Positions 8,071-29,970 of a stretch of 64,000 nt of DNA are shown in pieces. The notes below the pieces were generated by a model. The model searched no databases. It had not been told where the DNA came from and saw only the letters and a list, made by a program, of their open reading frames with translations. Position numbers and translations under genes: made by a program. Location: the NCBI RefSeq assembly GCF_056746865.1, contig NZ_CM163382.1. One strand, 5' to 3'. The first letter of the stretch is position 1. The number at the start of each line of letters is the position of its first letter.

Positions 8071-8095
8071 AAAACCCGCAATGAATGCGGGTTCT
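8071..8095 (-). terminator. Intrinsic terminator downstream of repressor gene
   Basis: Hairpin ACCCGCA-ttca-TGCGGGT followed by T-run on the minus strand, immediately 3' of cI stop. Confidence 0.5.
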
Positions 8096-8098
8096 GAC

Positions 8099-9502: not shown

Positions 9503-9509
9503 AAGCACG

Positions 9510-10487: not shown

Positions 10488-10493
10488 CGTGTC

Positions 10494-11240: not shown

Positions 11241-11261
11241 TTTTGTCCGGAGGAAATTTTA

Positions 11262-12032: not shown

Positions 12033-12047
12033 TTGCCGGAGGCGCTT

Positions 12048-12470
12048 ATGGCAAAAGTATTTACACAAGAAGAGCGGGAAAAAATTAAAGGGCAGGTTGT
12101 TGAACTTGTACGTCTGAGCGGTCGCGAGACGTTGCGGCAACTGGAAGCCAAGACAGGTGCGACAAGATATCTGATGAGTGTTCTCGCCAGAGAGCTGGTT
12201 GCCAGTGGCGATGTATACAACTCTGGTTACGGGTTATTCCCGTCTGAACAGGCGCGTAAGGACTGGCAAAACGCCCGCAAAAAACTCTCAAGGGCAAATC
12301 TGAAGAAACCATCTGTGGTTGATCCTGACCTTATCTGGCCATTACCAGACGGCGAAATACGCCGCTACGACAGGCGTCAAAACATAATCTGTAGCGAGTG
12401 CCGGAAGAGCGAAGCTATGCAGCGTGTACTGGCTTTCTATCAGGGTAATTTTCAGAAGGTGCTGTTGTGA
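12048..12470 (+). CDS. Hypothetical protein, putative wHTH
   Basis: ATG at 12048 with GGAGG RBS (track ORF starts at an upstream TTG, 12033). Confidence 0.5.
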   Translation: MAKVFTQEEREKIKGQVVELVRLSGRETLRQLEAKTGATRYLMSVLARELVASGDVYNSGYGLFPSEQARKDWQNARKKLSRANLKKPSVVDPDLIWPLPDGEIRRYDRRQNIICSECRKSEAMQRVLAFYQGNFQKVLL

Positions 12471-12575
12471 GCCAAATTAACAATCGGAACTTCGTGAAGA
12501 GAAAGCATAATCCAAATCTGAATAATTAAGTTCAGCACTGTAAATAAAATTTAATCCTTAACTGGAGGTATATCT

Positions 12576-12686
12576 ATGTCAAATACACAGAAAATTATTA
12601 ACACTGAAAAATATAACGAGTGGGTGAAAAATTCTCTGAGCAGATTTTTAAAATTACTGGCGACGAGAATGTGGCAAAAAATGAAT
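12576..12686 (+). CDS. Small basic protein (36 aa), hypothetical
   Basis: Manual translation MSNTQKIINTEKYNEWVKNSLSRFLKLLATRMWQKMN; GGAGG RBS 8 nt upstream; below track cutoff. Confidence 0.3.
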
Positions 12687-12819
12687 TAGAACCGTGGACA
12701 CCTGAAGGAAACGCACCAAATTATTGCTGGTGGGAGGTTGATCCGGTTGATGCTGCAAATGAAGCCATGAGTTACCACAACGATTAATGTCGGGAGGCCG
12801 CCCGAAAGGGCGGTAAGAA

Positions 12820-13038
12820 ATGACTACATTATTCAGAAAAGAATATCCGCAAAAAAGTAGGGCGACAGAATTTTTGTTTCTCATTCTGTTTATCGTATTG
12901 ATGATACCGATATCCCCTCTAATTTTTGTCTGGGCAATCGGGAAAATAATTGAGCCAGTTTCTGAATTGTATAACGACGTGGTGTGGGCGTCATTCAACA
13001 CACTGCACAATAAAATTAATCCGTATAAGGAAAACTGA
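12820..13038 (+). CDS. Small membrane protein, hypothetical
   Basis: 72 aa with one long hydrophobic segment; start preceded by GGAGG and a GNRA hairpin. Confidence 0.4.
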   Translation: MTTLFRKEYPQKSRATEFLFLILFIVLMIPISPLIFVWAIGKIIEPVSELYNDVVWASFNTLHNKINPYKEN

Positions 13039-13039
13039 T

Positions 13040-13243
13040 ATGGCAACTTTGACAAAAAAAGAACGGGCATGGTTGAACGAATTACAGGAAGTTCTTGATC
13101 GCTGTCCATCACCGAAAAAATTGGCTTTTACACCATTGGCGATAAAAGCATTTACCTGTATGACCTACGCCGCATGGATGAAATCATGGAGGCTCTTGAT
13201 AATCGTTCGTCGATGGATTGGTGTGTTGCTGTTCATGATATGA
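13040..13243 (+). CDS. Hypothetical small protein (67 aa)
   Basis: ATG overlapping the previous stop (TGATATG); internal Met of track ORF 12950..13243. Confidence 0.35.
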   Translation: MATLTKKERAWLNELQEVLDRCPSPKKLAFTPLAIKAFTCMTYAAWMKSWRLLIIVRRWIGVLLFMI

Positions 13244-13433
13244 ATGCAGGGTTTGATGAAAAGATTTTGTTCCCCTCATCAGTTGAAAGCACTGCGGGTT
13301 AAGGAGTAACACATGACCACTATTACCAAAGAACGTATTGAATTGTTCATTAAATTTTCAGGAGGCGGTACTGTGAGTGAAATTAGCTATCAGGCTTCAA
13401 TTACCGCTGGCATTCGCATCAAAGGAGAGGAGC

Positions 13434-13790
13434 ATGGAAATAAAACCAGAGGATGAGTTAAGCAATATCGTTTTATTTCCGGTAAAAGAGGATGACCCTC
13501 GTAATCAGGTTAATTTTCTTTATGAGCCATCGGAAAGACCATATTGTCATCACGCCTCTGTCCGGGTTGACGAAAAAGAGCGTCAGGTCCGCTGTAAAAT
13601 CTGCGGTGCAGTTGTGGAACCATTTGACTGGATGCTCTCTGTGGCGAAAAGAGAAACCAGACTGGCAGATGATGTAAGGCTCTTGCGTCAGGAGGAGCGG
13701 GAAAGGCGAAAAAATATAGAAAAGCTAATTCAGATTGAGCGTAACGCGAAAGCGCGGATACGCAGGGCGACAAAATCCAGAACTGAATAA
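13434..13790 (+). CDS. Hypothetical zinc-ribbon protein
   Basis: Start MEIKPEDE after AAAGGAGAGGAG RBS; CHH...CKICG motif; basic C-terminus. Confidence 0.45.
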   Translation: MEIKPEDELSNIVLFPVKEDDPRNQVNFLYEPSERPYCHHASVRVDEKERQVRCKICGAVVEPFDWMLSVAKRETRLADDVRLLRQEERERRKNIEKLIQIERNAKARIRRATKSRTE

Positions 13791-13883
13791 TTAAATTTAG
13801 CTCTGTTAAAAATTTAATCCTTAACCGGAGGGATTTCTGCACCCTCAGAACATCAGGAGGCCGCCCGAAAGGGCGGTAGTTAA

Positions 13884-14066
13884 ATGCGAAAGTTTAAAAT
13901 AATTATTGAAACGGGAATAGCCGGTGGAGATTTCGAGGATGAATTCGAAGTGGATGATGATGCGACGCCTGATGAAATACATGACGAAGCAAAAGATATT
14001 TTCTTTAACTACTGCAATTACTCATATCACGAAATAAAAGACGAAGAGGAAGAACAAAATGGCTGA
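13884..14066 (+). CDS. Small acidic protein, hypothetical
   Basis: 60 aa, highly acidic; start preceded by the second GGAGG/GNRA-hairpin module. Confidence 0.4.
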   Translation: MRKFKIIIETGIAGGDFEDEFEVDDDATPDEIHDEAKDIFFNYCNYSYHEIKDEEEEQNG

Positions 14067-14235
14067 TTTTGGTTCAACTAAATACAACGTCGGTTTTGAA
14101 GAATGGCATGAACTGTTAATGGACTATGCAGAGTTACGTGGTGGCAGTGCTGCTGATGCTGAAGCATGGCGTGATGATTATGAAGCAGGAAAAACTCCGG
14201 TCGAAGCATATTGTGATGAGTGGGGCGATGAATGA
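14059..14235 (+). CDS. Small acidic protein (58 aa), hypothetical
   Basis: Manual translation MADFGSTKYNVGFEEWHELLMDYAELRGG...; overlaps previous stop. Confidence 0.3.
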   Translation: MADFGSTKYNVGFEEWHELLMDYAELRGGSAADAEAWRDDYEAGKTPVEAYCDEWGDE

Positions 14236-14717
14236 GCGAGGTTAATTATCAGGAAGGGCATGAAACGGCGGGGCAAGCAAAAACAGTGGCATGGCGATAT
14301 CGCTACGTGAAAAAAAGGCGTTACGGACTTTCAGGGGAAGTAGTGGTCTGGTGACTGGAAATATGTACCGAAAAAAGAGGATTGTAACGACAGGCCGAAC
14401 TATGAAATTCAGGCCTTATTCACTGCCCCGCCAGTCCCGGTTACATCAGAAGAACTGGTTAAAGCTGTGCACTTTTATGAACAACTAAAATGCGAAAATC
14501 CACCAGCATCCGGAAACCTGATTACAGATTCCCAGATAAGGCAATGAGCTACCTGGCGCAGAACGGGCTGATAAGTATGGGGAATGTTTTACGATGAATA
14601 TTTAGACTAAAGAGTTTGTAACGCTATGTAAGTGATTTTTTCTGGTTTAGATATTTATATGTCCGGCTAAATTGAGGTGTGTTTAAATGTTATTGCACAT
14701 TGATTGTAGGGGGAATA

Positions 14718-14897
14718 ATGAAAAACGCATTGCAGTTTTTGTTTGTTGCGTTCTGGTTGTTCGCATCATGTATGCCCATCATCTTCACAGCAAGGTATAT
14801 GGAAAAAGTTGATGTTTTGATATTAATGTTTGGACATATAAATGCCCTTTTTTTAGGGGTGTTCATGGCGGTCATGTGCATTGAATACTGGCGGTAA
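14718..14897 (+). CDS. Small hydrophobic membrane protein, hypothetical
   Basis: Internal Met MKNALQFLFVAFWLF...; AT-rich surroundings. Confidence 0.3.
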   Translation: MKNALQFLFVAFWLFASCMPIIFTARYMEKVDVLILMFGHINALFLGVFMAVMCIEYWR

Positions 14898-15155
14898 ATA
14901 CAGCGAACGCCATTGGTTTAGTTGGATATTTACTGTGCCGGACAAAAACGGTTTGCGGGGAAATCTTAGTTAAGTAGAATGACTGCGGGTGCTTGAGGCT
15001 ATCTGTCTCAGGCATGAACACCAAAAGGCAGATAGAGAAAAGCCCCAGTTAACATTACGCGTCCTGCAAGACGCTTAACATTAATCTGAGGCCATATCTA
15101 TGCGACACATAGAGATTAGCCTCTTACGGACCGAAAGGTCAAGGAGAAGCAGGCT

Positions 15156-15311
15156 ATGAAGCAGCAAAAGGCGATGTTAATCGCCCTGATCGTCATCTGT
15201 TTAACCGTCATAGTGACGGCACTGGTAACGAGGAAAGACCTCTGCGAGGTACGAATCCGAACCGGCCAGACGGAGGTCGCTGTCTTCACAGCTTACGAAC
15301 CTGAGGAGTAA
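15156..15311 (+). CDS. hok: Hok/Gef-family type I toxin
   Basis: 51 aa MKQQKAMLIALIVICLTVIVTALVTRKDLCEVRIRTGQTEVAVFTAYEPEE, Hok-like TM helix plus CE(I/V)R motif; AAGGAG RBS; short overlapping upstream leader ORF (mok-like). Confidence 0.85.
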   Translation: MKQQKAMLIALIVICLTVIVTALVTRKDLCEVRIRTGQTEVAVFTAYEPEE

Positions 15312-15380
15312 GAGACCAGGCGAGGGGGAAATCCCTCGCCACCTCTGATGAGTCAGGCATCCTCAACGCACCCGCACTTA

Positions 15381-15407
15381 ACCCGCTTCGGCGGGTTTTG
15401 TTTTTTC
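15381..15407 (+). terminator. Intrinsic terminator after hok
   Basis: ACCCGC-ttcg-GCGGGT hairpin followed by TTTGTTTTTT. Confidence 0.6.
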
Positions 15408-15478
15408 CTGGCATTCTGGTTTACAATTCGCACGTCAGCCTGAACACCTGACACCTGCTGCGCCAGTAGAGAAAACAG

Positions 15479-15751
15479 ATGGCGCACAAAACCAAATTTC
15501 ACAATTCTGATACCGACCTTGCCATCCGGCATGGGCGGCGTTCACACGCATTTAAAACCGACTGGTACCAACACCCACCATGTACTGAAGAACAGGCCGA
15601 ATGGCTAATTCATAACTACCGCAGACGCGGATACGAGATTAAGAAAGCCCTCAGCCTCGATTATCGTCACTGGATAATCTATGTCAGGCTCCCTTATTCC
15701 GAACGCTCACCGCGCCCATCCCGCACATTCCAGCAACGCATCTGGAGGTAA
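15479..15751 (+). CDS. Hypothetical protein (90 aa), overlaps the DUF968 gene out of frame
   Basis: ORF overlapping 15681..16802 by 71 nt in another frame. Confidence 0.3.
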   Translation: MAHKTKFHNSDTDLAIRHGRRSHAFKTDWYQHPPCTEEQAEWLIHNYRRRGYEIKKALSLDYRHWIIYVRLPYSERSPRPSRTFQQRIWR

Positions 15752-16802
15752 CGTGCGGATATTACTTCGACCTGTTCTGGTACCGGAACTCGGGCTGGTG
15801 GTCCTTAGGCCGGGCCGTGAATCCATGCCGGTATTCCACAATACCCGGGTACTGGTGGAGCCTGAACCGAAAAGCATGCACGGTCTGCCGTCCGGAGTCG
15901 TCCCTGCCGTTCGCCAGCCGCTGGCGGAGGATAAATCATTTCTGCCATTTTTCAGCGATGAGCGGGTGATTCGTGCTGCTGGCGGCGCTGGGGCACTGTC
16001 TGACTGGCTGTTGCGTCATGTCAAATCCTGCCAGTGGCCTCATGGTGACTATCATCACAGTGAAATCGTCATACATCGTTACGGTACCGGCGCGATGGTG
16101 TTGTGCTGGCACTGCGACAACCAGTTGCGCGACCAGACCTCCGAATCACTCGGGCAACTTGCTCATCAAAACCTGTCAGCATGGATGATTGACGTCATAC
16201 GCCATGCAATGAATGGCACGCAGGAGCGGGAATTGTCGCTGGCTGAATTATCCTGGTGGGCGGTCCGCAATCAGGTGGCGGACGCGCTACCGGAAGTGGT
16301 ATTACGTCGTTCGCTGGGGTTGCGTGCGGAAAAAATCCGCTCAATGTACCGTGAAAGCGACATCGTACCGGGAGAGCAGACCGCCACCAGCATACTGAAA
16401 CAGCGCACAAAAAATATTGCGCCGCTGCCTCACGCCCACCAGCAACAGAACCCACCACAGGAAAAGACGGTGGTCAGCATTGCCGTTGATCCTGAGTCTC
16501 CGGAATCTTTCATGAAACGACCTAAACGTCGCCGCTGGGTTAACGAGAAATACAAACGCTGGGTGAAGACACAGCCGTGTGCGTGTTGTGGTAAGCCAGC
16601 CGACGATCCCCATCACCTGATTGGTCATGGTCAGGGCGGAATGGGGACAAAATCTCACGATATTTTCACGCTACCGCTGTGTCGGGAGCATCACAACGAG
16701 CTTCATGCGGATCCTCTGGCGTTCGAACAAAAGCATGGTTCTCAGGTTGATTTAATTTTTCGTTTTCTTGATCACGCCTTTGCAACTGGCGTGCTTGGGT
16801 AA
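15681..16802 (+). CDS. DUF968-like protein (Cys/His-rich C-terminal domain)
   Basis: C-terminal CACCGK...HHLIGHGQGGMGTKSHD...CREHHNELH region typical of prophage DUF968/YdfU-like proteins; start uncertain (alternative ATG 15825). Confidence 0.55.
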   Translation: MSGSLIPNAHRAHPAHSSNASGGNVRILLRPVLVPELGLVVLRPGRESMPVFHNTRVLVEPEPKSMHGLPSGVVPAVRQPLAEDKSFLPFFSDERVIRAAGGAGALSDWLLRHVKSCQWPHGDYHHSEIVIHRYGTGAMVLCWHCDNQLRDQTSESLGQLAHQNLSAWMIDVIRHAMNGTQERELSLAELSWWAVRNQVADALPEVVLRRSLGLRAEKIRSMYRESDIVPGEQTATSILKQRTKNIAPLPHAHQQQNPPQEKTVVSIAVDPESPESFMKRPKRRRWVNEKYKRWVKTQPCACCGKPADDPHHLIGHGQGGMGTKSHDIFTLPLCREHHNELHADPLAFEQKHGSQVDLIFRFLDHAFATGVLG

Positions 16803-16814
16803 AAGAGGTGACTG

Positions 16815-17174
16815 ATGCTCATAGATTTGGTTTTACCTTACCCGCCGACGGTGAACACTTACTGGCGACGCCGTGGCAGCACATATTTTATTTCGGAGGA
16901 GGGAAAGCGTTATCGCCGGGCTGTGGCGCTTATTGTTCGCCAGCAGCGGCTGAAATTAAGCCTGTCCGGAAGGCTGGCGATAAAGGTGATTGCAGAGCCA
17001 CCGGATAAGCGTCGTCGCGACCTGGACAATATCCTGAAAGCACCGCTGGATGCGCTGACGCATGCGGGAGTGTTAATGGACGATGAGCAGTTTGATGAAA
17101 TCAATATTGTACGTGGTCAGCCAGTATCTGGTGGACGGCTGGGTGTGAAGATTTACAAAATTGAGAGTGAGTGA
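16815..17174 (+). CDS. rusA: Holliday junction resolvase RusA
   Basis: 119 aa; LPYPPTVNTYWRRRG and RRRDLDN motifs match RusA. Confidence 0.9.
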   Translation: MLIDLVLPYPPTVNTYWRRRGSTYFISEEGKRYRRAVALIVRQQRLKLSLSGRLAIKVIAEPPDKRRRDLDNILKAPLDALTHAGVLMDDEQFDEINIVRGQPVSGGRLGVKIYKIESE

Positions 17175-17737
17175 GCGTAAATATGATATATCCGGAAATT
17201 ACAGGCAAAAGCGGCGAGCATTTACGTCTAAAAACGCTGGAAGCAGTCTGGATCCAGGGGAAATTACGGATGTGGGGGCGGTGGCCGTATATTGGCGGCG
17301 GTAAGACGGGAAATATGTTCAACCAATTACTGACCTCTAAAAAGCTGACAAAAACGGCAATTAACGAGGCGCTCCGGAGGATGAAAAAAGCTGGTCTGGA
17401 CAAACCTGAACTTGAGGCTTTTTTGCGGGATATGATCAACGGCAATCAAAAAAGCTGGCTGGCACATTGTACCGATTCAGAGGCGTTAATAATCGACAGG
17501 GTTATTGGTGAAGTCCTGGCAGGCTATCCCGGGCTGCTCAATGTCCTGAGTCAGCGTTATGTGGGGCGGGGGATGACTAAGCGCAAAATGGCTGAACTGC
17601 TGAATGATGCACACCCGGAATGGAGTTTAAGAACCTGTGAAAGACGCATTGAGCATTGGCTAAAGGTGGCAGAATTTATTTTGTACAAACCAATGGTTAT
17701 GGCTTTTGGTATAGAGAAAAAAGTTATTGCTTTTTGA
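17171..17737 (+). CDS. Q: Late antitermination protein Q (lambdoid Q-like)
   Basis: 188 aa directly after rusA and followed by a strong intrinsic terminator (tR'-like). Confidence 0.65.
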   Translation: MSVNMIYPEITGKSGEHLRLKTLEAVWIQGKLRMWGRWPYIGGGKTGNMFNQLLTSKKLTKTAINEALRRMKKAGLDKPELEAFLRDMINGNQKSWLAHCTDSEALIIDRVIGEVLAGYPGLLNVLSQRYVGRGMTKRKMAELLNDAHPEWSLRTCERRIEHWLKVAEFILYKPMVMAFGIEKKVIAF

Positions 17738-17814
17738 CGTAAAAACTGCTTCAATTCCGGTACGCTTCGCAAAGCTGTACCACGAGGCGAATAGCAGACA
17801 TGGACATTTGAAAG

Positions 17815-17839
17815 AGCCCGCTTTTTGCGGGTTTTTTTA
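17815..17839 (+). terminator. tR'-like intrinsic terminator downstream of Q
   Basis: GCCCGC-ttttt-GCGGG hairpin followed by TTTTTTT. Confidence 0.65.
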
Positions 17840-17961
17840 TGCCTGAAAAACGGCACAGAACATTAAACGCGCTGGTGGTTGCGAATACCGGTCTTTCAGC
17901 TTGCTGGCTTTTCCGACAAGAGTTATTGGTATGTTACGTTAACCAGAAAAGGGAAAAAGAC

Positions 17962-18159
17962 ATGCTAAAACAGCAGGATATGACCGAAACCGCCAGAGTG
18001 GTGTTTAATGAGTTAAGCGTCACCGAACCGGCGACAGTCGGGGAGATTGCACAGAATACTTACCTTTCACGCGAACGCTGCCAGTTAATACTGACCCAGC
18101 TTGTTATGGCGGGTCTGGCAGACTATCAGTTTGGTTGTTACAGACACCTTCAGTCCTGA
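17962..18159 (+). CDS. Hypothetical small wHTH-like protein
   Basis: Internal Met MLKQQDMTETARV...; motif TVGEIAQNTYLSRERCQLILTQL; followed by hairpin plus T-run at 18147..18173. Confidence 0.35.
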   Translation: MLKQQDMTETARVVFNELSVTEPATVGEIAQNTYLSRERCQLILTQLVMAGLADYQFGCYRHLQS

Positions 18160-18295
18160 AGGCTTTTTTATTTGTGGTAAATGGGCGGCTGGTGGGTGTG
18201 GTGGTAGACTGGCCCCCTGAATCTCCAGACAACCAATATCACTTATTTAAGTGATAGTCTTAATACTAGTTTTTAGACTAGTCATTGGAGAACAG

Positions 18296-18661
18296 ATGAT
18301 TGATGTCTTAGGGCCGGAGAAACGCAGACGGCGTACCACACAGGAAAAGATCGCAATTGTTCAGCAGAGCTTTGAACCGGGGATGACGGTCTCCCTCGTT
18401 GCCCGGCAACATGGTGTAGCAGCCAGCCAGTTATTTCTCTGGCGTAAGCAATACCAGGAAGGAAGTCTTACTGCTGTCGCCGCCGGAGAACAGGTTGTTC
18501 CTGCCTCTGAACTTGCTGCCGCCATGAAGCAGATTAAAGAACTCCAGCGCCTGCTCGGCAAGAAAACGATGGAAAATGAACTCCTCAAAGAAGCCGTTGA
18601 ATATGGACGGGCAAAAAAGTGGATAGCGCACGCGCCCTTATTGCCCGGGGATGGGGAGTAA
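18296..18661 (+). CDS. insC: IS2 transposase OrfA (InsC)
   Basis: [40 protein letters not shown]... matches InsC. Confidence 0.9.
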
Positions 18662-19524
18662 GCTTAGTCAGCCGTTGTCTCCGGGTGTCGCGTGCGCAGT
18701 TGCACGTCATTCTCAGACGAACCGATGACTGGATGGATGGCCGCCGCAGTCGTCACACTGATGATACGGATGTGCTTCTCCGTATACACCATGTTATCGG
18801 AGAGCTGCCCACGTATGGTTATCGTCGGGTATGGGCGCTGCTTCGCAGACAGGCAGAACTTGATGGTATGCCTGCGATCAATGCCAAACGTGTTTACCGG
18901 ATCATGCGCCAGAATGCGCTGTTGCTTGAGCGAAAACCTGCTGTACCGCCATCGAAACGGGCACATACAGGCAGAGTGGCAGTGAAAGAAAGTAATCAGC
19001 GATGGTGCTCTGACGGGTTCGAGTTCCGCTGTGATAACGGAGAAAAACTGCGAGTCACGTTCGCGCAGGACTGCTGTGACCGTGAGGCACTGCACTGGGC
19101 GGTCACTACGGGCGGCTTCAACAGTGAAACAGTACAGGACGTCATGCTGGGAGCGGTGGAACGCCGCTTCGGCAACGAGCTTCCGGCGTCTCCAGTAGAG
19201 TGGCTGACGGATAATGGTTCATGCTACCGGGCTAATGAAACACGGCAGTTTGCCCGGATGTTGGGGCTTGAACCGAAGAGCACGGCGGTGCGGAGTCCGG
19301 AGAGTAACGGCATAGCAGAGAGCTTCGTGAAAACGATAAAGCGTGACTACATCAGTGTCATGCCCAAACCAGACGGGTTAACGGCAGCAAAGAACCTTGC
19401 AGAGGCGTTCGAGCATTATAACGAATGGCATCCGCATAGTGCACTGGGTTATCGCTCGCCACGGGAATATCTACGGCAGCAAGCCAGTAATGGGTTAAGT
19501 GATAACAGGTGTCTGGAAATATAG
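18619..19524 (+). CDS. insD: IS2 transposase OrfB (InsD), DDE domain
   Basis: 301-aa ORF overlapping orfA in -1 frame, typical IS3-family frameshift arrangement. Confidence 0.9.
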
Positions 19525-19879
19525 GGGCAAATCCAGGTGGTTGTTGCTTTCCCGTTGCTGAAAAAGAAAACGCCAGACTGTTAGCCGGGTATCAGTTATC
19601 TGGAGAAATTTTTAAATACCTCACAATTCAGGCGGTTGACTGTTGTCTGGTTTGCGGGGAGTTTGTTAAAAGAAACTGGCATGGTGAATCCCCCTGTGCG
19701 GAGGGGCAATCAGCAACTGGTGTTTTGTCACCGACCCTTATCCTTTCTGTGCGGGTTCAGGTGCTGATACTGAACTCACCGGGAGGCACCCGGCATCATG
19801 CAATGGCACATAGCGCCACTCTCCAGCCCCTCTCCGGAGGGGCTGTTTATATTGATTTTGTCAGATGTGAGTAAACTCC

Positions 19880-20215
19880 TTATGGACTTTGTTGTTTTAG
19901 TCCATAAGGACATATTTGCAGAGTGCAACGGTTATTAAAGCATTCATTCAATACGTTATCTGTATTTGTAGGACATTCCTGGCTGTTTTTGATTAAATTC
20001 CAGAATGTTTTATTGAATGGTACTACGTTGTAAATGGTTAAAGGTAGCACTTTGTTATTGAGCATGATACCTGTGTGAGTCAGTGTAAATATACTTTCAG
20101 GAGGTAAGAAAGCATCCGATTGATACCAGATTATTAATTTTATTTTACTCCATATGACTGAAAAAGATATTCCGCATGATGGCTGGATAACTGTATCAAT
20201 CACAATCCACTTCAT
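19880..20215 (-). CDS. IraM-like anti-adaptor protein paralogue (prophage-borne)
   Basis: 111 aa, [22 protein letters not shown]...ICPYGLK; alignable over full length with the chromosomal iraM at 57426..57749; AT-rich. Confidence 0.7.
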
Positions 20216-20460
20216 TTAGTTTCCTTGTTTATGTCTTGCTGGTGATGTTCTGAAAAGTATAAATGATATTTTTGAATGTAAACCATAGAGCAGAATTATT
20301 TTTCTGATGTTGTTTATTGTTTATTTAAATGCAGGGTGGTTTATATCTCGTCTTGTAGTTTATCCATGCATATCTGCTTGATGATGAGGTTTTTATTTAA
20401 GGTATGGTTTTGTGTTTTTTCTGTATTACATGTCAGGTATTTTAAAGAATTATTTTTCAG

Positions 20461-22437
20461 ATGGTGGAAAGAACCATGGCATTTAAACACTATGATGTTG
20501 TCAGGGCGGCATCGCCGTCAGACCTTGCGAAACGACTGACACAAAAACTGAAGGAGGGGTGGCAGCCATTTGGCAGTCCGGTGGCCATCACGCCTTATAC
20601 CCTGATGCAGGCCATTGCGGCGGAAGGTGATGTCACCACACCTGTGGTGGTGAAGCCGTCGGATGGAGAAGGCGCAGTTATCAGCACCACCAGCAACCCG
20701 GAGTATTACTTTGTTGTTGCCCTGGCCGGGCAGTCAAACGGTATGGCGTATGGTGAAGGGCTTCCGCTGCCGGAGACATATGACCGTCCGGACCCGCGTA
20801 TTAAACAGCTGGCGCGTCGCAGCACTGTCACGCCGGGTGGTGCGTCCTGTAACTACAATGACATTATTCCTGCGGACCACTGCCTGCATGATGTTCAGGA
20901 TTTGAGTAAGTTTTCACACCCGAAAGCCAGCGCAGCTCAGTATGGATGCGTGGGGCAGGGATTACATATCGCGAAGAAATTGTTGCCGTTTATTCCGGCG
21001 AATGCCGGTATTCTTCTGGTTCCGTGCTGCCGTGGTGGTTCTGCATTTTTGGCGGGCGATGAAGGTACCTTCAGCGAATCCACCGGCGCAAGCGAGACCT
21101 CGGCACGCTGGGGTGTAGATAAGCCACTGTACAAGGACCTGCTTACCCGTACTCAGGCCGCACTGAAGGCCAACCCTAAAAATATTCTGCTTGCAGTGGT
21201 CTGGATGCAGGGCGAGTTTGATTTGAAACAGGGTGCATACGCCACTCAGCCGGGGCTGTTTGATTCCATGGTGGAAAAATATCGTTCTGACCTGTCGGAA
21301 TTCGGAGGTCAGTGTCTCGGGGGCTCTCCGTCATCAGTTCCCTGGATTTGTGGCGACACGACCTACTACTGGAAGCAGACTTATTCTTCGCAATACGATG
21401 CGGTGTATGGTGCATACAAGACGAAATCCGCAAAAAAAATCTTCTTTGTGCCGTTTATGACGGATGAAAACGGGCGAAATGTGGGTACCAACGAGCCGTC
21501 AGAAGATCCGGATGTTGCGGATATTGGGTATTACGGAGCCGGTGGTCGAACGGACGCCAAAACCTGGACGACGGCTGACCGTAAAACGCATTTTGGATCA
21601 TGGGCACGTCGTGGGATTATTTCCGACCGTCTGGCAACGGCGATTCTTGTGCATGCCGGGAGAAACGCTGAATTCATTACCGGAAAACAGCCTGATACGG
21701 TGAAGCCCACCGGACCTTCCGGTGAAGGTACGGAGAGAGAGCCGGGAGCCCCGGTCAGTAACCGAACCCTGATGAGTCTGCTGGCGTCCGGCGAAGACCT
21801 GGCATCACAGGGCTGGCGCTATTATCACAAACCGGCGAGCGGAGACAATGTTAACAAAAACATTGCTGAAGCGGTGGTCAGTGATGCGGGGGCTACGGGA
21901 GGTAAGGCCCTGCAACTGAATAAACCGGAAAACCACATCTGGTTTCTGGAGCATGATGCAGCCGGACAGGGAGTGGAGTTACTGAAGAAGGGGGGACGTG
22001 TGAGCGTACGGTTTAAGTTGCCGGGTTCACTGGTGCCGAATCAGTTTGCCCTGGGCATTTACTGGCAGTTGTCGTCCCTGCCGGAGGGAGTGACGCTGGC
22101 AGAGGAAGGCAACGACATGCTGATGTCCTTCTTTCTGCAGACGGATGCGACGAACCTGAACGCGATGCACCACAAGAAGCCGAATGCGAAGCTGGAAACG
22201 TTCGGGGTCTTTGATAACGGATGGCACACACTGGCTTTTGAGTTTGCCGGAAACAACAGCATTCAGGTGACGCCGGTACTGGATGAGAAACGGGGGACGC
22301 CGTTCACACTGGTGAAATCTCCGGCATCAGGGGCGGCGGACAAACTGCAACTGACAGGCATATCAAAGGCGGCGACATATACGCTGCTGATTGACAGTGT
22401 GAAGGTGGAAGTGAACAACGCGGACATCGCGGCATGA
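20461..22437 (+). CDS. nanS-p: NanS-p-type prophage sialate O-acetylesterase (SGNH hydrolase)
   Basis: 658 aa; N-terminal MAFKHYDVV (DUF1737-like), GQSN catalytic block; typical position downstream of Q in EHEC-type lambdoid prophages; likely start ATG 20476. Confidence 0.75.
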   Translation: MVERTMAFKHYDVVRAASPSDLAKRLTQKLKEGWQPFGSPVAITPYTLMQAIAAEGDVTTPVVVKPSDGEGAVISTTSNPEYYFVVALAGQSNGMAYGEGLPLPETYDRPDPRIKQLARRSTVTPGGASCNYNDIIPADHCLHDVQDLSKFSHPKASAAQYGCVGQGLHIAKKLLPFIPANAGILLVPCCRGGSAFLAGDEGTFSESTGASETSARWGVDKPLYKDLLTRTQAALKANPKNILLAVVWMQGEFDLKQGAYATQPGLFDSMVEKYRSDLSEFGGQCLGGSPSSVPWICGDTTYYWKQTYSSQYDAVYGAYKTKSAKKIFFVPFMTDENGRNVGTNEPSEDPDVADIGYYGAGGRTDAKTWTTADRKTHFGSWARRGIISDRLATAILVHAGRNAEFITGKQPDTVKPTGPSGEGTEREPGAPVSNRTLMSLLASGEDLASQGWRYYHKPASGDNVNKNIAEAVVSDAGATGGKALQLNKPENHIWFLEHDAAGQGVELLKKGGRVSVRFKLPGSLVPNQFALGIYWQLSSLPEGVTLAEEGNDMLMSFFLQTDATNLNAMHHKKPNAKLETFGVFDNGWHTLAFEFAGNNSIQVTPVLDEKRGTPFTLVKSPASGAADKLQLTGISKAATYTLLIDSVKVEVNNADIAA

Positions 22438-22793
22438 TAAAAAAAGCCGCCAGCGGCAGGAATGGAAGCTGGCGGAGGTAATCCCAATGGAGAATGTAAA
22501 GAAAAGATGCTTTCGACATCAATCATTTCTAAATGAAAACAGTTCTCATTGTCAACCATAACGGTAAGAAATTATGACATTTATTCATCAGGTAATGCTG
22601 TACTTCTGTATGGCAGTTTGTGTTATGTATCTTCTTTCGGGTGGGTACAGGGCAGTGCGCGATTTCTGGCGCAGGCAGATTGATAAAAGGGCCGCTGAGA
22701 GAATCAGCGCCAGTCAGTCAGCCGGAAGCAAACCCGAAGATCCGCTCATTCCGTAGTCACTTTCTTGACAACACCTTTCAACGAGAAAATCCC

Positions 22794-23039
22794 ATGTCAG
22801 AAATCACATCCCTGGTCACTGCTGAGGCAGTGAAGGAAGTCCTGCGCTCTGAAGAAGTCCTGAGCGCACTGAAACAGAAACTCCGCCAGAACCTTGAGTC
22901 GCGTCTTGATGCAGAAGTGGATGCCATTCTGGATGAGCTGCTGGGCGTACCAGCGGTTCCGGAGCCGGAAGGTATCGCGGGTGACGGGAGTGCTTCAGAT
23001 GGCGGTGAACCCACACCTGACAGCGACATGATGATGTAA
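22794..23039 (+). CDS. Hypothetical acidic protein (81 aa)
   Basis: Internal Met [13 protein letters not shown]... of track ORF 22620..23039; between nanS-p and holin. Confidence 0.4.
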
Positions 23040-23115
23040 GCCTGCGCAAGGGACCATCGGTGTGTGCCGGTGGTCTTTATATTGTTGTGAGCTTCCGGAT
23101 AACGGGAGACGGGGT

Positions 23116-23331
23116 ATGTACCAGATGGAAAAAATCACAACAGGTGTGTCATACACCACGTCAGCGGTGGGAACGGGCTACTGGTTCCTGCAGTTGCTGG
23201 ACAGGGTTTCCCCGTCTCAGTGGGCGGCAATAGGCGTGCTGGGGAGTCTGCTGTTTGGGCTGCTGACGTACCTGACTAACCTGTATTTCAAAATCAAAGA
23301 GGACCGGCGTAAGGCGGCGCGGGGAGAGTAA
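23116..23331 (+). CDS. S: Holin S (lambdoid, 933W/phage-21 type)
   Basis: 71 aa [28 protein letters not shown]...; TM segments; charged C-terminus. Confidence 0.85.
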
Positions 23332-23332
23332 A

Positions 23333-24226
23333 GTGATGAATAAAAAATATGAACTGGTTGTTAAGGGGATAAATAATTACGGGGATAAGGTTACTGTTAC
23401 TGTGAAGCCGGAAGGTGACGGGCAAGCGTCGCTGTTGTTGCCAGATGTGGCGATTAGTCTTGACCGTACTGAAGGTGCCACGCTGGAGTTTTACGAAGCT
23501 GAGGCGAAAAAGCAGGCGAAGCAGTTTTTCATGGATGTTGCTGCCGGGTTATGTGAATGGAACGAACCGTTGCCGGAAAAGCGCCCCGTAATTTTAGAGG
23601 CGCAGGATGTGTTGATAACCTACAAAGGAAAGCTACCGGGAAGAATTACTTGTTCTCTGAAGATGCCGCCGTCAACACTGCGGTCAGAAAAAGATGATGT
23701 TGAATCACGTATTGAAAAACTGGAGAGCTACGTCGTTGAGCTGAATAAGAAATGGTCGATATTGGTGCCTTCTGGCGATGAAAAGCAGTTTGCTGCGTTT
23801 GACGATTATTGTCGGAAAGTGATGAGCAGAAATCTCGCAGAGTGTTTCAGTATTCATAATGATAATTTCAGTGACCCGGAATGGGAGTGTAACCGGCCAT
23901 CCTTTGTTGTATCCGGTGATGCTGGGAAAATAACCATCTCAGAAAATGGGAAAGTAACACCTCCATCGCACCAGCACAGTGAGGAGCTCATTGAATTTGC
24001 CATTGATTACCTGAAGAACAATAAAAAGCAGGGGCTGATGAAGCGCGTTGGCCGTTGCATGGGATATCTTCAGGTAGCCGCTGAGATTGAAGCGCTGGCC
24101 AGTGGTGCTGATAAGGATGCAATTGTGCGGGAGGCTCTTCTTCGTGATTTTAATACTCCACCCTTTAAAAAAGTGCCGGCTTACTGGCTTCATCCGGGGC
24201 TGACTTATCTTAAAGTGCGTATTTAG
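23333..24226 (+). CDS. Unknown 297-aa protein inserted between holin and endolysin
   Basis: ORF begins 2 nt after holin stop (GTG 23333 / ATG 23336); no TM, no signal peptide, no motif recognised. Confidence 0.6.
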   Translation: MMNKKYELVVKGINNYGDKVTVTVKPEGDGQASLLLPDVAISLDRTEGATLEFYEAEAKKQAKQFFMDVAAGLCEWNEPLPEKRPVILEAQDVLITYKGKLPGRITCSLKMPPSTLRSEKDDVESRIEKLESYVVELNKKWSILVPSGDEKQFAAFDDYCRKVMSRNLAECFSIHNDNFSDPEWECNRPSFVVSGDAGKITISENGKVTPPSHQHSEELIEFAIDYLKNNKKQGLMKRVGRCMGYLQVAAEIEALASGADKDAIVREALLRDFNTPPFKKVPAYWLHPGLTYLKVRI

Positions 24227-24262
24227 TGGGCCAGGGACAGCGGCTGAATATTTAATATATCC

Positions 24263-24796
24263 ATGAACACCAAAATCAAATACGGCCTGTCGGCTGCCGT
24301 TCTGGCGCTGATTGCCGCTGGTGCGCCTGCGCCTGACATTCTCGACCAGTTTCTGGATGAAAAGGAAGGCAACCACACCACGGCATACCGTGATGGTGCA
24401 GGTATCTGGACCATCTGCCGTGGTGCCATCATGGTGGATGGCAAACCTGTCGTTCCGGGCATGAAGTTGTCGAAGGAAAAATGCGACCAGGTTAACGCCA
24501 TTGAGCGTGATAAAGCGCTGGCGTGGGTGGAGAAAAACATCAGAGTGCCGCTGACCGAACCCCAGAAAGCGGGGATCGCGTCATTCTGTCCGTACAACAT
24601 TGGTCCCGGTAAGTGTTTCCCGTCGACGTTTTACAGACGAATTAATGCAGGTGATCGAAAAGGTGCCTGCGAAGCGATTCGCTGGTGGATTAAGGACGGT
24701 GGCAGAGACTGCCGTATTCGTTCAAACAACTGTTACGGTCAGGTATCCCGTCGTGACCAGGAGAGCGCGCTGGCGTGCTGGGGTATCGACAGATAA
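24263..24796 (+). CDS. R: Endolysin R, lysozyme with N-terminal SAR (signal-anchor-release) segment
   Basis: 177 aa; YGLSAAVLALIAAGAPAPDIL SAR segment; EGNHTTAYRDGAGIWTICRG lysozyme catalytic region. Confidence 0.9.
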   Translation: MNTKIKYGLSAAVLALIAAGAPAPDILDQFLDEKEGNHTTAYRDGAGIWTICRGAIMVDGKPVVPGMKLSKEKCDQVNAIERDKALAWVEKNIRVPLTEPQKAGIASFCPYNIGPGKCFPSTFYRRINAGDRKGACEAIRWWIKDGGRDCRIRSNNCYGQVSRRDQESALACWGIDR

Positions 24797-24919
24797 GCAG
24801 AATATTTTGCTGAAAAATGAGGAATGGCCACGCGGGCGGATAACACGAAATCCTGCGAACTGGCGAAACGTAAGTGAATAAAAGTAAAAACCCCGTTTGT
24901 TGGCACCAAGCGAGGTTTT

Positions 24920-25135
24920 GTGTTTCTGACCTTGAGTAAGGCAAGGGAGAACATGGCGAAGTGTAAACGAATTCTGTTGAGGTTGACTATGAAAAATGGC
25001 CTTGAACTGAAAGCGCCTGTAACTGATGACATCAGCAGAGCACTGGCTTTTGCCATTAAGTGGGTGGCGGTCGGTGTTGCTGTGTCCCCGATGCTGTATG
25101 GGCTGGCAAAACTGGTCATTGCGTTGAAATCGTGA
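24920..25135 (+). CDS. Hypothetical protein between R and Rz
   Basis: 71-aa ORF; C-terminal hydrophobic segment. Confidence 0.35.
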
Positions 25136-25149
25136 AGGGAGGATTAAGC

Positions 25150-25281
25150 ATGTCAGACAAACTCATAACGCTGGCGAAGATCCTCTGTGTAATTGTCGGC
25201 ATTTCATTTTCACTAATGCTGGTTGCTCTTTTTCTTTCCATGGCCTGGATGATGTTGTCTTCGTCGGGGTTGCTGGGGTGA
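25150..25281 (+). CDS. Small membrane protein (43 aa), hypothetical
   Basis: [51 protein letters not shown]. Confidence 0.3.
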
Positions 25282-25751
25282 ACATAAACCGAATGCTTTC
25301 CGCGTTTATCGTTATTCTGCTGGTGGCCTGTGGTGCGCTGTGGATGGCAACAGACCATTACCGTGATAACGCGATTACCTACAAAGCGCAGCGCGATAAC
25401 AAAGCCAGTGAACTGAAGCTGGCGAACGCAACCATTACTGATATGCAGGTGCGCCAGCGCGATGTTGCTGCGCTCGATGCAAAATACTCGAGGGAATTAG
25501 CCGATGCGAGAGCTGAAAATGAAACTCTTCGCGCTGACGTTGCCGCTGGTCGTAAGCGCCTGCGGATCAACGCCACCTGTCCAGGCTCCGTGCGTGAAGC
25601 CCCCACCACCTCCGGCGTGGATAATGCAACCGGCCCCCAACTGGCAGACACCGTTACACGGGATTATTTCACCCTCAGAGAGCGGCTGATGACGATGCAC
25701 AAGCAACTGGAAGGGGCACAGGACTATATCCGCACTCAGTGCCTGAAATAA
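25278..25751 (+). CDS. Rz: Spanin inner-membrane subunit Rz
   Basis: 157 aa; N-terminal TM; coiled-coil periplasmic region; embedded Rz1. Confidence 0.85.
25519..25689 (+). CDS. Rz1: Spanin outer-membrane lipoprotein Rz1 (embedded in Rz, +1 frame)
   Basis: [15 protein letters not shown] lipobox, proline-rich mature peptide. Confidence 0.75.
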
Positions 25752-26061
25752 GTTTTGTTGATGCGCCGTATCGTCGCTATATTCCCTCATTAACAGAGAC
25801 CGCAGCCCGACAGGGAGACTCCTCTGCGCGAGTGTGCGGGGATAATTAAAAACGATGCACACCGGGTTTTTACCGCGTTAATGATTCGCGGGTTTATCCC
25901 GGTGCGATGGTGGAAGAAACAGGAAGCTGTATTACAGAAAGTGCTACTACTGTATCCCGATGCGATGTATGTAATGTGAGTCAGATAATGGCACAGGATG
26001 TGGTGATGTGGCAGTCTGGAACACAGGATATATTGTCAGAATAAGACCCGTAGGAATAAAA

Positions 26062-26388
26062 ATGAAAAGACGCCTTTTACTACTTTTTCTGTTATCTGTC
26101 CTGGCAGTGGGATGCTCGCAGCAAAAAGCTGATGAGCCCCGGCAATTAGTGACGGTGTATCCACGATATCCGGAATATGCTGCAGCAAATTATATCAAGG
26201 GGCTGGTTGAGGTTAAGTTCGATATTGGTGCTGATGGGACTGTGACACGGATCGTTTTTCTCCGCTCAGAGCCTCATAATTTGTTTCGTGATGAAGTGGT
26301 GAAGGCCATGGCGAAATGGCGATTTGAAAAGAATCGCCCCTGTCAGGGAGTGAAGAGACAATTTATCTTTACGCCGTCACGTCCTTGA
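26062..26388 (+). CDS. Lipoprotein with TonB C-terminal-like domain
   Basis: MKRRLLLLFLLSVLAVGCSQQ lipobox; YPRYPEYAAANYIKGLVEVKFDIGADGTV resembles TonB_C. Confidence 0.55.
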   Translation: MKRRLLLLFLLSVLAVGCSQQKADEPRQLVTVYPRYPEYAAANYIKGLVEVKFDIGADGTVTRIVFLRSEPHNLFRDEVVKAMAKWRFEKNRPCQGVKRQFIFTPSRP

Positions 26389-26510
26389 TGCTTCCAGGTA
26401 GAGAGGGGCTGGACGCAGGAGAAAAATGAAAGAGCCAGCGGTTATATTTTTGTCATGGCTGACGAGGAATGATGGAAGAAGGCGTTGTATGCCACACAAC
26501 GCCTCACTGT

Positions 26511-27003
26511 TCATTTCTTCTTTTTCTCTGGTGGAACCCGATGAATAAGAGTTGCACTGGTTTCCGATGAGATGGCGATATACTCGGGCAAAGTATGCTG
26601 GCAGTTTTCCAACTGGTCAAAAATACCTGCTCTCGTCTGTTGCAATGCCTGCAGCATGCGGCGGCAATGCGCCTTGCTTTTACTAACCATCTTTCCTTCC
26701 TCTATCAGTCGCTGCGTGAACTCATCATGTAATACCAGGTAAATGCGGATGTTATCGGTTTTGGCTACGCAGCATAGTACAAAACGGACAGGGGCATCCC
26801 GGGACGGGGGAGGCGTCACATGTCCCTGTGATGGTTGTTCCGGGTAATGCACTGTGTGGGGCATAAAAATGTCCGATAATTTTACTTTCTACCGCAGTTA
26901 GTTGATTCGTTGGTCCTGGTAGCACATTGGGCGAGGATTTAAATGCCAGGCAACTGAAGGATGATGTTGCAAGGGAGATAGCGAGAATATTTCTGATTTT
27001 CAT
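26511..27003 (-). pseudogene. Possible frameshifted secreted-protein gene (two overlapping minus-strand ORFs)
   Basis: Track ORFs 26752..27072 (signal peptide MKIRNILAISLATSSFSCLA) and 26511..26864 overlap in different frames. Confidence 0.3.
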
Positions 27004-27151
27004 TTGATGATGCCTCTGTGTGAAATGACGGTAAACGACGCACTTGTGCCGGCACATAATAGCAAGCACCATAATAGATCAGATTCGATTCTTGCTGTAA
27101 GTGATAATTATTCTCGTTTTCGGGTCCTTTCCGTCGATCCAACAGGTTACG

Positions 27152-27163
27152 GGGCGGCGACCT
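27152..27163. other. cos: cosN cohesive-end site (GGGCGGCGACCT)
   Basis: ACGGGGCGGCGACCTCGCGCGTTTTCGCTATTTATGA matches lambda cos as recalled; about 220 bp upstream of Nu1. Confidence 0.7.
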
Positions 27164-27379
27164 CGCGCGTTTTCGCTATTTATGAGATTTTTTGAGGGGG
27201 TGGTTGTTGTTTAATTGTTTGGTATATCTACTTGATAAGTAAGGTGAAAATAAAATAAATACAACAACCTTACGATGTATTTTGATGTCATTAATGTGAA
27301 AAAATTCAATGATATCAAATGGTTTTGTAAAAACACATGGTTGTTGTATCGCTTTTTATCGATGACTTATGGAGAGGAG

Positions 27380-27886
27380 ATGGCCTTTTTATTGAATAAA
27401 AGTGATATGGCCTCCTCCATTGGTATCTCTGTTCAGGCATTTGATAAATGGGGCGTTCCTCCTGTTGAGCGTCGGGGTAGGGAGGTTTTTTATGACGTTA
27501 AAACTGTACTGGAGATAGATCGCGAGCGGCGACAATACAATCAGAGAACACCTGATGACGGGGGCGATCTGGAGGAAAGACTGCTTCGGGCCAGAGCTGA
27601 ACTGACAGAAGAACAGGCTGTAGCTCAAAAACTTAAAAATCAGGTAACCGAAGGTAAGCTCATCGATTCAGACTTCTGCGTTTTCGCCCTCAGCAAACTG
27701 GCGATGGCATTGTCCAGTACGCTTGATTCCATTCCGTTATCCATGCAGCGACAGTTCCCGGATTTAACGCCACGTCATATTGACCATCTGAAAACCCTTA
27801 TTGCAAAGGGCGCAAATCAGTGTGCGCGGGCGGGGGATAAATTACCGGATTTACTCGATGAATATATCAGAGCAACAACTGAATAA
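27380..27886 (+). CDS. nu1: Terminase small subunit (Nu1-like)
   Basis: Alignable with lambda Nu1 (FALSKLA...LDSIPLSMQRQFPDL); start ATG 27380 with GGAGAGGAG RBS. Confidence 0.8.
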   Translation: MAFLLNKSDMASSIGISVQAFDKWGVPPVERRGREVFYDVKTVLEIDRERRQYNQRTPDDGGDLEERLLRARAELTEEQAVAQKLKNQVTEGKLIDSDFCVFALSKLAMALSSTLDSIPLSMQRQFPDLTPRHIDHLKTLIAKGANQCARAGDKLPDLLDEYIRATTE

Positions 27887-29786: not shown

Positions 29787-29970
29787 ACTACAGGCGCTGC
29801 GTCAGGCGCGCCTTGATTTATTAACCGGTAAACGGGTGGTGTCTGTCCAGAAAGATGGTCGCAGAATTGAATATACGGCGGCTTCTCTGGATGAGCTTAA
29901 CCGGGCGATCAATGATGCGGAGTCGGTACTGGGGACAACCCGCCGTCGTCCGCTGGGAGTGAGGTTATGA
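29770..29970 (+). CDS. W: Head-tail joining protein gpW
   Basis: 66 aa; LTGKRVVSVQKDGRRIEYTAASLDEL matches lambda W. Confidence 0.8.
   Translation: MVTVAELQALRQARLDLLTGKRVVSVQKDGRRIEYTAASLDELNRAINDAESVLGTTRRRPLGVRL

Follow-up and report, generated by a model that had tools for sequence, protein, structure and literature searches.

The IraM-like gene in the late region of a defective potB/potC prophage is iraL, a published RssB anti-adaptor gene of Escherichia coli

The small open reading frame (ORF) found in the late region of a lambdoid prophage between potC and potB is iraL. This gene was named, mapped and functionally characterized in 2014 (PMC4045071; Hryckowian et al., 2014) and is already present in RefSeq, and hence it is not new. 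It was detected in a stretch of 64,000 nucleotides (NCBI RefSeq assembly GCF_056746865.1, contig NZ_CM163382.1), to which we will refer as "the window", and which also contains the chromosomal iraM gene. An earlier note, written from the letters of the window, had described the ORF as a prophage-borne paralogue of IraM, which could let the prophage alter general stress-response signalling in its host. What the note observed is confirmed, but the ORF is not a new paralogue, as it matches the published iraL by protein, coding sequence, promoter, mRNA start and prophage site. The idea of a phage-borne anti-adaptor altering RpoS signalling is supported by the experiments carried out with IraL from E. 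coli CFT073 (PMC4045071), which is identical to the window protein at 110 of 111 positions. The ORF very probably acts as an RssB anti-adaptor stabilizing RpoS. The features on which this account is based are collected in Table 1.

Table 1. Coordinates of iraL, its regulatory elements and the surrounding features in the 64-kb window.
Feature	Position	Strand	Remarks
Lambdoid prophage, defective	1875..44592	.	Between potC and potB; bounded by a 14-bp direct repeat; site of the CFT073 potB prophage
Prophage integrase	2033-3151		Adjoins potC; potB on the far side
Q-like late antiterminator	17183..17737	+	PHROG 753 "anti-termination protein Q-like", E = 9e-80
IS2, 1331 bp	18205..19535	+	Intact 5-bp target duplication GGTGG at 18200-18204 and 19536-19540
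STnc100-family prophage sRNA gene	19650..19854	+	Rfam RF02076, 133.5 bits (gathering threshold 47), full-length model match
iraL CDS	19880..20215	-	111 aa plus stop, ATG start; RssB anti-adaptor, IraM/IraL/RssC family
iraL 5' UTR, 33 nt	20216..20248	-	Start at 20248; Shine-Dalgarno AAGGA 8-12 nt before ATG
iraL core promoter	20256..20282	-	-10 TATACT 20261-20256; -35-like TTTACA 20282-20277; 15-nt spacer
PhoP-box-like direct repeat TGTTTA-TTGTT-TATTTA	20311..20327	+	One mismatch; candidate regulatory site
nanS-p-type SASA carbohydrate esterase gene	20476..22437	+	PGAP annotation in a 100%-identical genome; PHROG 143; divergent from iraL
Deletion junction, 7,835 bp	33748	.	Major capsid gene joined to gpK-like C40 peptidase gene
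phoQ	49266-50726		Window gene
phoP	50726-51397		Window gene
PhoP box of the phoPQ promoter	51458..51474	-	Perfect match, 12 nt upstream of the -10; positive control
Chromosomal iraM, 107 aa	57426..57749	-	102 nt downstream of icd (56073-57323); e14 absent

As had been described, the ORF lies on the minus strand in the late region of the prophage, between the Q-like gene and the esterase and lysis genes, and its product aligns end to end with the chromosomal IraM of the window: BLASTP returned 64 identities in 107 positions (60%) and 75% positives, without gaps and over the full length of IraM (E = 8e-51). The substantial identity proposed for both proteins is thus borne out, its estimate of one half being slightly low, and the motifs quoted as shared occur in both of them. 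With IraL from the uropathogenic strain CFT073 (locus tag c1429 in later papers, formerly named ycgW), the only difference in the protein is V59L, and 333 of 336 nucleotides of the coding sequence are identical (99.1%). The potC-adjacent prophage of the CFT073 chromosome encodes a 111-aa "IraM" in a slot equal to that of the window gene, and the original description reported 58.9% amino acid identity between IraL and IraM, placing iraL "on the potB genomic island" (PMC4045071). In that work, iraL was delimited by at least 95% identity across the complete coding region together with at least 96% identity of the promoter/upstream regulatory region. The window gene reaches 99.1% and 97.7% (promoter fragment), respectively, with the mapped mRNA start present, and it is because of these coding and promoter values that it was assigned to iraL and not to iraM in the strict sense. 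Its location in the potB/potC prophage, and not beside icd, is also that of iraL. Conversely, iraM proper would be at least 95% identical to K-12 iraM and would sit directly downstream of icd; the ORF shows 60-65% identity and belongs to a prophage late region. In genomes identical to the window, RefSeq/PGAP names the product "anti-adapter protein IraM", which is a family-level label. No sequence evidence against the iraL identity was seen.

The start of the iraL transcript can be located by means of published data, since the 5'-RACE 32-mer ACATCACCAGCAAGGCATAAACAAGGAAACCA has a single match in the window (20248-20217, minus strand, 30/32, zero expected by chance), ending one base short of the iraL ATG. 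The -35 and -10 hexamers were assigned by reading the sequence relative to this mapped start, which gives the layout TTTACA-N15-TATACT-N7-A(+1). A generic promoter scan did not report this promoter, because the tool demands spacers of 16-18 nt. The fragment from -100 to +33 is 97.7% identical to that of CFT073 (130/133; 99/100 for -100 to -1), with one non-coding difference just ahead of the start site (-1) and two within the 5' UTR (+15 and +31); the CFT073 allele has identical -35, -10 and Shine-Dalgarno elements. A fragment of this same extent (-100 to +33) was sufficient for iraL expression in K-12 (PMC4045071). Moreover, the -10 hexamer is kept across seven upstream regions of the family sharing just 41-68% identity. 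The description of the ORF as an independently regulated cargo gene, AT-rich and opposed to the late operon, therefore holds, given its own mapped transcription start and a sigma-70-type promoter, its position on the minus strand among plus-strand esterase and lysis genes, and a GC content of 0.31-0.33 over positions 19850-20450, compared with 0.45-0.58 in the flanks (iraL coding sequence 0.336; upstream intergenic region 0.296; whole window 0.495).

The function of IraL has been established in other strains. Deletion of iraL lowers log-phase RpoS in CFT073 and Shigella sonnei, the half-life of RpoS in log phase being around 5 min with iraL and around 2.5 min without it; complementation works from the native promoter, and RpoS is raised in K-12 carrying iraL (PMC4045071). 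The interaction of IraL with RssB was described by two-hybrid assays and co-purification, the receiver domain of RssB being the part bound (PMC4045071). Later work reported higher IraL in a fur mutant, and more iraL mRNA once cells had been shifted to 37 °C. In the strain studied here, RssB binding and RpoS stabilization would be expected from the 110/111 identity with CFT073 IraL. Broadly, iraL would be transcribed from its own sigma-70-type promoter, against phage late transcription and independently of it, and because of this independence it would be expressed in the lysogen. The 12.7-kDa product would bind the N-terminal receiver domain of the adaptor RssB, so that the latter would no longer deliver RpoS to ClpXP, and the half-life and level of RpoS would increase during exponential growth. 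IraL would thereby coexist with the chromosomal, PhoP-induced IraM as two related inhibitors of one adaptor; rssB, rpoS and clpXP all lie outside the 64-kb window. H-NS could silence the iraL region (30-34% GC) in some backgrounds.

Family models and structure prediction support the assignment to the anti-adaptors. The protein scores 161.4 bits (residues 1-110) with the IraM subfamily model NCBIfam NF007393, for which the curated cut-off is 121, and is included in PHROG 4407, a family of unknown function. A Pfam-A scan of the ORF was empty even at E ≤ 10, whereas precomputed annotation assigns PF11183 (PmrD) to the family; this discrepancy was treated as a difference in library version, and the NCBIfam and fold matches were relied on instead. 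Residues 1-78 are 65% identical to the crystallized IraM fragment (PDB 8TWD). An AlphaFold (AF2) model built from 14 family members places seven strands within residues 2-66 and a helix at 69-77 with moderate confidence (core pLDDT values of 60-81), recovering in this core the IraM fold (antiparallel beta-barrel, beta-hairpin and C-terminal helix); residues 81-111 had pLDDT below 50, and gave no usable model of the tail. The top Foldseek match of the model is 8TWD_A, IraM in complex with RssB (E = 1e-7, TM 0.86, rmsd 1.6 Å), and the next structural match after IraM is PmrD (4HN7, TM 0.76; 2JSO), in agreement with the likeness between IraM and PmrD pointed out in the structural paper (PMC10844676). 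PmrD shares with the IraL model this unusual fold of beta-barrel plus helix, and like IraL and IraM it binds the receiver domain of a response regulator; pmrD is also PhoP-activated in Salmonella (Zwir et al., 2012). It differs in its low identity to IraL (12-14%), in its target (PmrA), in its action, protecting phospho-PmrA from dephosphorylation, and in having no four-cysteine tail. A likeness to the zinc proteins Kti11/Dph3 was discarded as noise, as these PDB sequence matches (E 0.26-0.9) cover residues 9-47 and do not involve the cysteine tail.

At the residue level, all 30 invariant columns of the 14-sequence family alignment are present in the window protein, including C81, C92, C97 and C102. 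This invariant four-cysteine C-terminal tail is missing from the crystal structure, and could add a metal or redox input. V59L is a conservative change, and position 59 varies among V, L, I and M within the family. Three clusters of IraM residues contact RssB (PMC10844676). The five contacts of IraM with the receiver domain are all retained in IraL (I4, I6, W22, K26 and I42), and IraL carries substitutions (T13S, L75I, H63N and I64V) in the clusters touching the C-terminal domain or the linker of RssB. [quoted passage not shown]

The comparison of both anti-adaptors outlines what is shared and what is not. IraM, both that of K-12 (b1160) and the window copy, has the family, length, fold, RssB target and RpoS-stabilizing effect of IraL, and the two share the five receiver-domain contacts and the four C-terminal cysteines. 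However, iraM is chromosomal and adjacent to icd, whereas iraL belongs to a prophage late region; IraM is PhoP-induced at low Mg2+, whereas IraL is reported as active in unstressed log phase; and IraM contacts both RssB domains. The window IraM is identical to K-12 IraM at 72 of 78 positions over residues 1-78. The wording of PMC4045071, where iraM is part of the e14 prophage, was not followed, since the annotated e14 of K-12 does not include iraM, and the window has iraM but no e14. The promoters of iraL and iraM are not homologous, BLAST similarity being limited to the coding region.

The iraL region is widespread. With at least 80% of positions 19780-20460 covered at 95% identity or more, it was found in 1,427 of 5,426 complete E. 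coli genomes (around 26%), with up to five copies per genome. At its sensitivity, the homologue search returned Escherichia sequences only, whose clusters form a gradient from IraL to IraM (97, 88, 75, 70, 66 and 63% identity to the query). Most of the contexts retrieved correspond to the same slot of a lambdoid late region. In cluster P0005 the gene is flanked by stx and the esterase gene, in P0016 by a methylase and the esterase gene, and in P0008 (E. albertii) by Q and ORF6N genes on one side and DUF3927 and esterase genes on the other. Cluster P0007 has a non-phage context. RssC of Salmonella is the third member of the iraL-iraM-rssC family, around 49% identical to iraL and restricted to Salmonella (PMC4045071); the word-indexed homologue search did not retrieve it.

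A further clade is carried by Stx2a/Stx2c phages (e.g. phage 2851, Stx2_EH2201; also cluster P0005), and was found in 236 of the 5,426 complete genomes. Its members are 74-75% identical to IraL (74% for the Stx-phage clade, which is 62% identical to IraM) and lie outside the iraL and iraM groups of at least 95% identity defined in 2014. They occupy the same slot as iraL, with nanS-p on one side and the toxin or tRNA region on the other, in the same orientation and next to the same sRNA-like region, and the -10 hexamer and PhoP-like box are conserved. They differ in their position directly downstream of stx2B and in two extra cysteines, C23 and C41. No paper on an iraM-family gene in Stx2 phages was found among those searched.

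Inspection of the region upstream of iraL for PhoP boxes, which the earlier note had suggested, provided one candidate site with a single mismatch. The pattern KGTTTA-N5-KGTTTA was searched in the whole 64-kb window, and this candidate is the only match with at most one mismatch besides the box of the phoPQ promoter. With respect to iraL it is a reverse box, which is centred near -71 and precedes the -10 hexamer by 49 nt. By itself it is not beyond chance window-wide, since 29 of 100 shuffles of the window give two or more such matches; in local shuffles of the 245-nt region, 5% give an equally good box. The idea was retained despite this, because the position of the box is conserved in diverged homologues. 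The upstream regions of the family contain two conserved islands, the -10 hexamer and the box region, and a reverse box recurs 49 nt upstream of the -10 in CFT073, 49 nt in P0005 (with the perfect consensus TGTTTA-TTCTT-TGTTTA), 48 nt in the Stx2-phage variant (with a different single mismatch) and 47 nt in the E. albertii copy (with two mismatches and an unrelated spacer), in regions of 47-68% identity and with differing spacers. Among the homologues compared, P0016 is without a box and P0007 is ambiguous. Shuffles of each sequence give a box with at most one mismatch in that position window in 0.03-0.2% of cases, and with at most two in 0.2-1.7%, figures to be read in the light of the shared ancestry of the homologues, which are not independent tests, and of a distance window picked after seeing the data.

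This geometry has a precedent. Architecture V comprises PhoP-activated, mostly horizontally acquired genes, with natural reverse boxes 30-58 nt upstream of the -10, including distances of 47, 48 and 49 nt, and engineered reverse boxes are active at 27, 37 and 48 nt (Zwir et al., 2012). The iraL box, reverse and at 49 nt, falls within this range. Together with the PhoP dependence of the paralogue IraM, and with the lack of a conserved -10 at canonical distance on the nanS-p side, this makes it a reasonable hypothesis, though on balance a somewhat improbable one, that iraL receives PhoP/PhoQ input like iraM, which would refine its regulation and not its identity. Several points weigh against such input. 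Architecture V usually includes a second box overlapping the -10 or downstream of the start (Zwir et al., 2012), and the search for it in iraL gave just an unconvincing match with three mismatches and one good half-site (TGTTTATGTCTTGCTGG, 20226-20242, around +7 to +23). Furthermore, iraL is expressed in log phase in LB, where Mg2+ is not limiting, and the inputs described for it, Fur and temperature, do not include PhoP. The original description contains no Mg2+ or PhoP test and presents IraL regulation as still under study (PMC4045071), and the papers searched held nothing relevant on PhoP control of iraL/ycgW or on binding of PhoP-P there. The broader proposal that phage-borne IraL-type genes, including the clade behind stx2 in Stx2a/Stx2c phages, are wired into host PhoP/PhoQ through the conserved reverse box is tentative and, in our view, rather doubtful. 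If true, lambdoid prophages would deliver a ready-made PhoP-to-RssB-to-RpoS connector, and the contrast between a "constitutive" IraL and a "Mg2+-responsive" IraM would become a matter of degree.

The same box could instead serve the divergent nanS-p gene, conferring PhoP-dependent, induction-independent expression of the esterase in the lysogen. It reads as a direct box on the plus strand, around 150 nt upstream of the nanS-p start, and direct boxes, which work at around 12 or 21-23 nt from the -10, are the commonest PhoP arrangement (Zwir et al., 2012). Nonetheless, the fit is poor at these canonical distances: neither the window nor CFT073 has an A2/T6 hexamer with at least 4/6 matches 9-25 nt downstream of the box toward nanS-p, and in the other homologues such hexamers occur at no conserved distance (16, 16 and 25 nt, or none). 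In addition, the E. albertii copy retains the box although DUF3927, not the esterase gene, occupies that side. Control of nanS-p by this element thus seems quite unlikely.

The prophage that carries iraL is bounded by the 14-bp direct repeat CACCTTCTTATTCA at 1875 and 44579. Two stretches are collinear with CFT073, one running from potD to the end of the early region and the other spanning the iraL region; the mRNA start, the potB/potC prophage and the slot between Q and the lysis genes are the same. It differs in its Q type, in the presence of IS2 (IS200 in CFT073), in having no DUF3927 gene, in nanS-p, which is intact here and truncated in CFT073, and in a deletion of tail genes. No tRNA genes were found in the window, whereas they lie between Q and the cargo block in CFT073 and in Stx2 phages, the latter also having a methylase gene and stx there. 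IS2 is a simple insertion between a small post-Q ORF and the sRNA gene, and the loss of the tRNA and methylase genes through an IS2-mediated deletion was discarded, as the 5-bp target duplication is intact. The sRNA gene converges on iraL, with a terminator hairpin at 19824-19845 (terminator scan), 35 nt past the iraL stop codon. On the other side, nanS-p is the first gene of the late/lysis block, whose esterase, holin and lysozyme genes are all on the plus strand; its counterpart in an Stx2 phage is annotated as yjhS / 9-O-acetyl-N-acetylneuraminic acid deacetylase. The cargo block formed by the STnc100-family sRNA gene, iraL and nanS-p is 95% conserved in CFT073 and around 72% in Stx2 phages, where it starts just downstream of stx2B. 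The 7,835-bp deletion, which extends from within the major capsid gene into the gpK-like gene, has removed the tail genes FI to L; strain CFSAN061770 is 100% identical to the window on both sides of 33748 (its 29458 joined to 21622). The prophage is defective, owing to this 7.8-kb deletion together with the IS2 insertion.

That defect, the AT-rich locus (30-34% GC), two substitutions in the 33-nt 5' UTR and a further one at -1 might suggest iraL as a silent passenger of a decaying prophage, H-NS-silenced or inactivated by the 5' UTR changes or V59L, with IraM doing the RpoS work; this is very unlikely, given an intact ORF with the -35, -10 and Shine-Dalgarno elements of the expressed CFT073 allele, a conservative change at a position variable in the family, a region that 1,427 of 5,426 complete genomes retain with at least 95% identity, and the expression driven in K-12 by a fragment of the same extent. 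An iraL gene acting as RssB anti-adaptor is the preferred reading.

The finding is a rediscovery, and its discovery value is low because the gene had already been published. It is nonetheless a useful check, as a phage-borne regulator of the general stress response was correctly recognized from sequence alone. There are also modest but testable by-products, namely a candidate PhoP site conserved across the phage-borne family, a third, unstudied clade directly behind Shiga toxin genes, and an invariant four-cysteine tail that has so far been omitted from structural work. For the strain itself, RpoS turnover would be controlled by a pair of related anti-adaptors, the chromosomal IraM and the IraL encoded by a defective prophage. 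In uropathogenic and Shigella strains, this arrangement has been reported to promote high RpoS levels in log phase.

Beside prophage IraL and chromosomal IraM, the IraM family has a third clade, carried by Stx2a- and Stx2c-converting phages directly behind stx2B or another stx gene. Its members are 74–75% identical to IraL and 62% to IraM, and thus fall outside both of the groups (≥95%) of the 2014 IraL paper (PMC4045071). The clade is present in 236 of 5,426 complete E. coli genomes, and no functional study of it was found in our literature search. The gene is often left without annotation in phage records.

The family has a C-terminal tail with the pattern CP-x9-C-x4-C-x4-CP-x-G, in which C81, C92, C97 and C102, together with P82, I101, P103 and G105, are invariant in the 14 family representatives compared (14/14). 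The crystallised form of IraM comprised residues 1–78, the tail having been removed, and the tail was referred to as flexible and less conserved (PMC10844676); its pLDDT in the AlphaFold model is also below 50. The tail might have a metal-binding or redox role. As for family assignment, a Pfam-A scan of the IraL protein (19883–20215) retrieved no family even at E ≤ 10, whereas the precomputed annotation of its homologues gives PF11183 (PmrD) for every member, a discrepancy probably due to a difference between Pfam releases.

Features of the window and of related loci (coordinates without a prefix are window positions; L-prefixed ones belong to the loci named)
Feature	Position	Strand	Remarks
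DicF sRNA	6539-6590	-	Rfam match; adjoins dicB
sok antitoxin RNA	14987-15158	+	Rfam match; upstream of hokD (15156-15311)
IS2, 1331 bp	18205-19535		5-bp target duplication GGTGG intact
STnc100-family prophage sRNA	19650-19854	+	Rfam RF02076, 133.5 bits, full-length match
C-terminal tail, IraL residues 81-111	19880-19975		
IS009 RNA	43041-43239	+	Rfam match; near tail-fibre end
C-terminal tail, IraM residues 81-107	57426-57509		
Third-clade IraM-family gene	L002:6001-6324		Stx2a phage EH2201
Third-clade IraM-family gene, homologue cluster P0005	L006:3206-3541 and L007:3173-3508		
IraM-family member, homologue cluster P0007	L010:4001-4321		70% identical to IraL

Within the prophage, iraL is convergent with the gene of an STnc100-family sRNA, whose terminator hairpin (19824–19845) lies 35 nt beyond the iraL stop codon. 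On the iraL strand this hairpin lacks a T-tract, and iraL transcripts might therefore read through into the sRNA in antisense. The block formed by the sRNA, iraL and the divergent esterase gene nanS-p is kept in CFT073, and Stx2 phages carry a diverged version of it right after stx2B; a preprint of 2026 about Pas/STnc100 sRNAs makes no mention of iraL or iraM as a neighbour. Among the other prophage RNAs, the IS009 segment has a partial second copy at 44166–44312.

The prophage has lost 7,835 bp (junction at 33748) with respect to its otherwise 100%-identical counterpart in strain CFSAN061770, joining the major capsid gene to that of a gpK-like C40 peptidase. The deletion removed FI, the head-tail joining genes, the tail tube, the tape measure, M and L, and the carrier of iraL is therefore a tailless, defective prophage. 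The CFSAN061770 prophage contains an IS4 which is lacking here (junction near 5928–5939). Furthermore, an IS2 is inserted between a small post-Q ORF (17962–18159) and the sRNA, and thus between the presumed late promoter region and the lysis genes. No tRNA genes are present in the whole window, whereas CFT073 and Stx2 phages carry them in the corresponding region.

Regarding the chromosomal paralogue, the wording in PMC4045071 places iraM in the e14 prophage. In K-12 (1194000–1216000) iraM is situated 102 nt past the icdC remnant, outside annotated e14 (1196209–1211412), and in the e14-free window it lies 102 nt beyond icd (the two genes together spanning 56073–57749); iraM is thus not an e14 gene but is located next to the site where e14 attaches. 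Its upstream region (57750–58066; GC 0.26) contains four PhoP-box-like repeats with two mismatches, three of them in direct orientation, where about 0.5 would be expected and four were reached in only ~0.1% of local shuffles. This excess fits the PhoP dependence already known for iraM, although the K-12 upstream region has only one of the four in common.

Finally, the P0007 member is located outside a phage late region, its neighbours being IS21, a GGDEF protein and a PerC-like regulator. Since a -10 element and a weak PhoP-like box are still found upstream of this gene, its sequence context suggests that an IraM-family gene can travel along with its own promoter.
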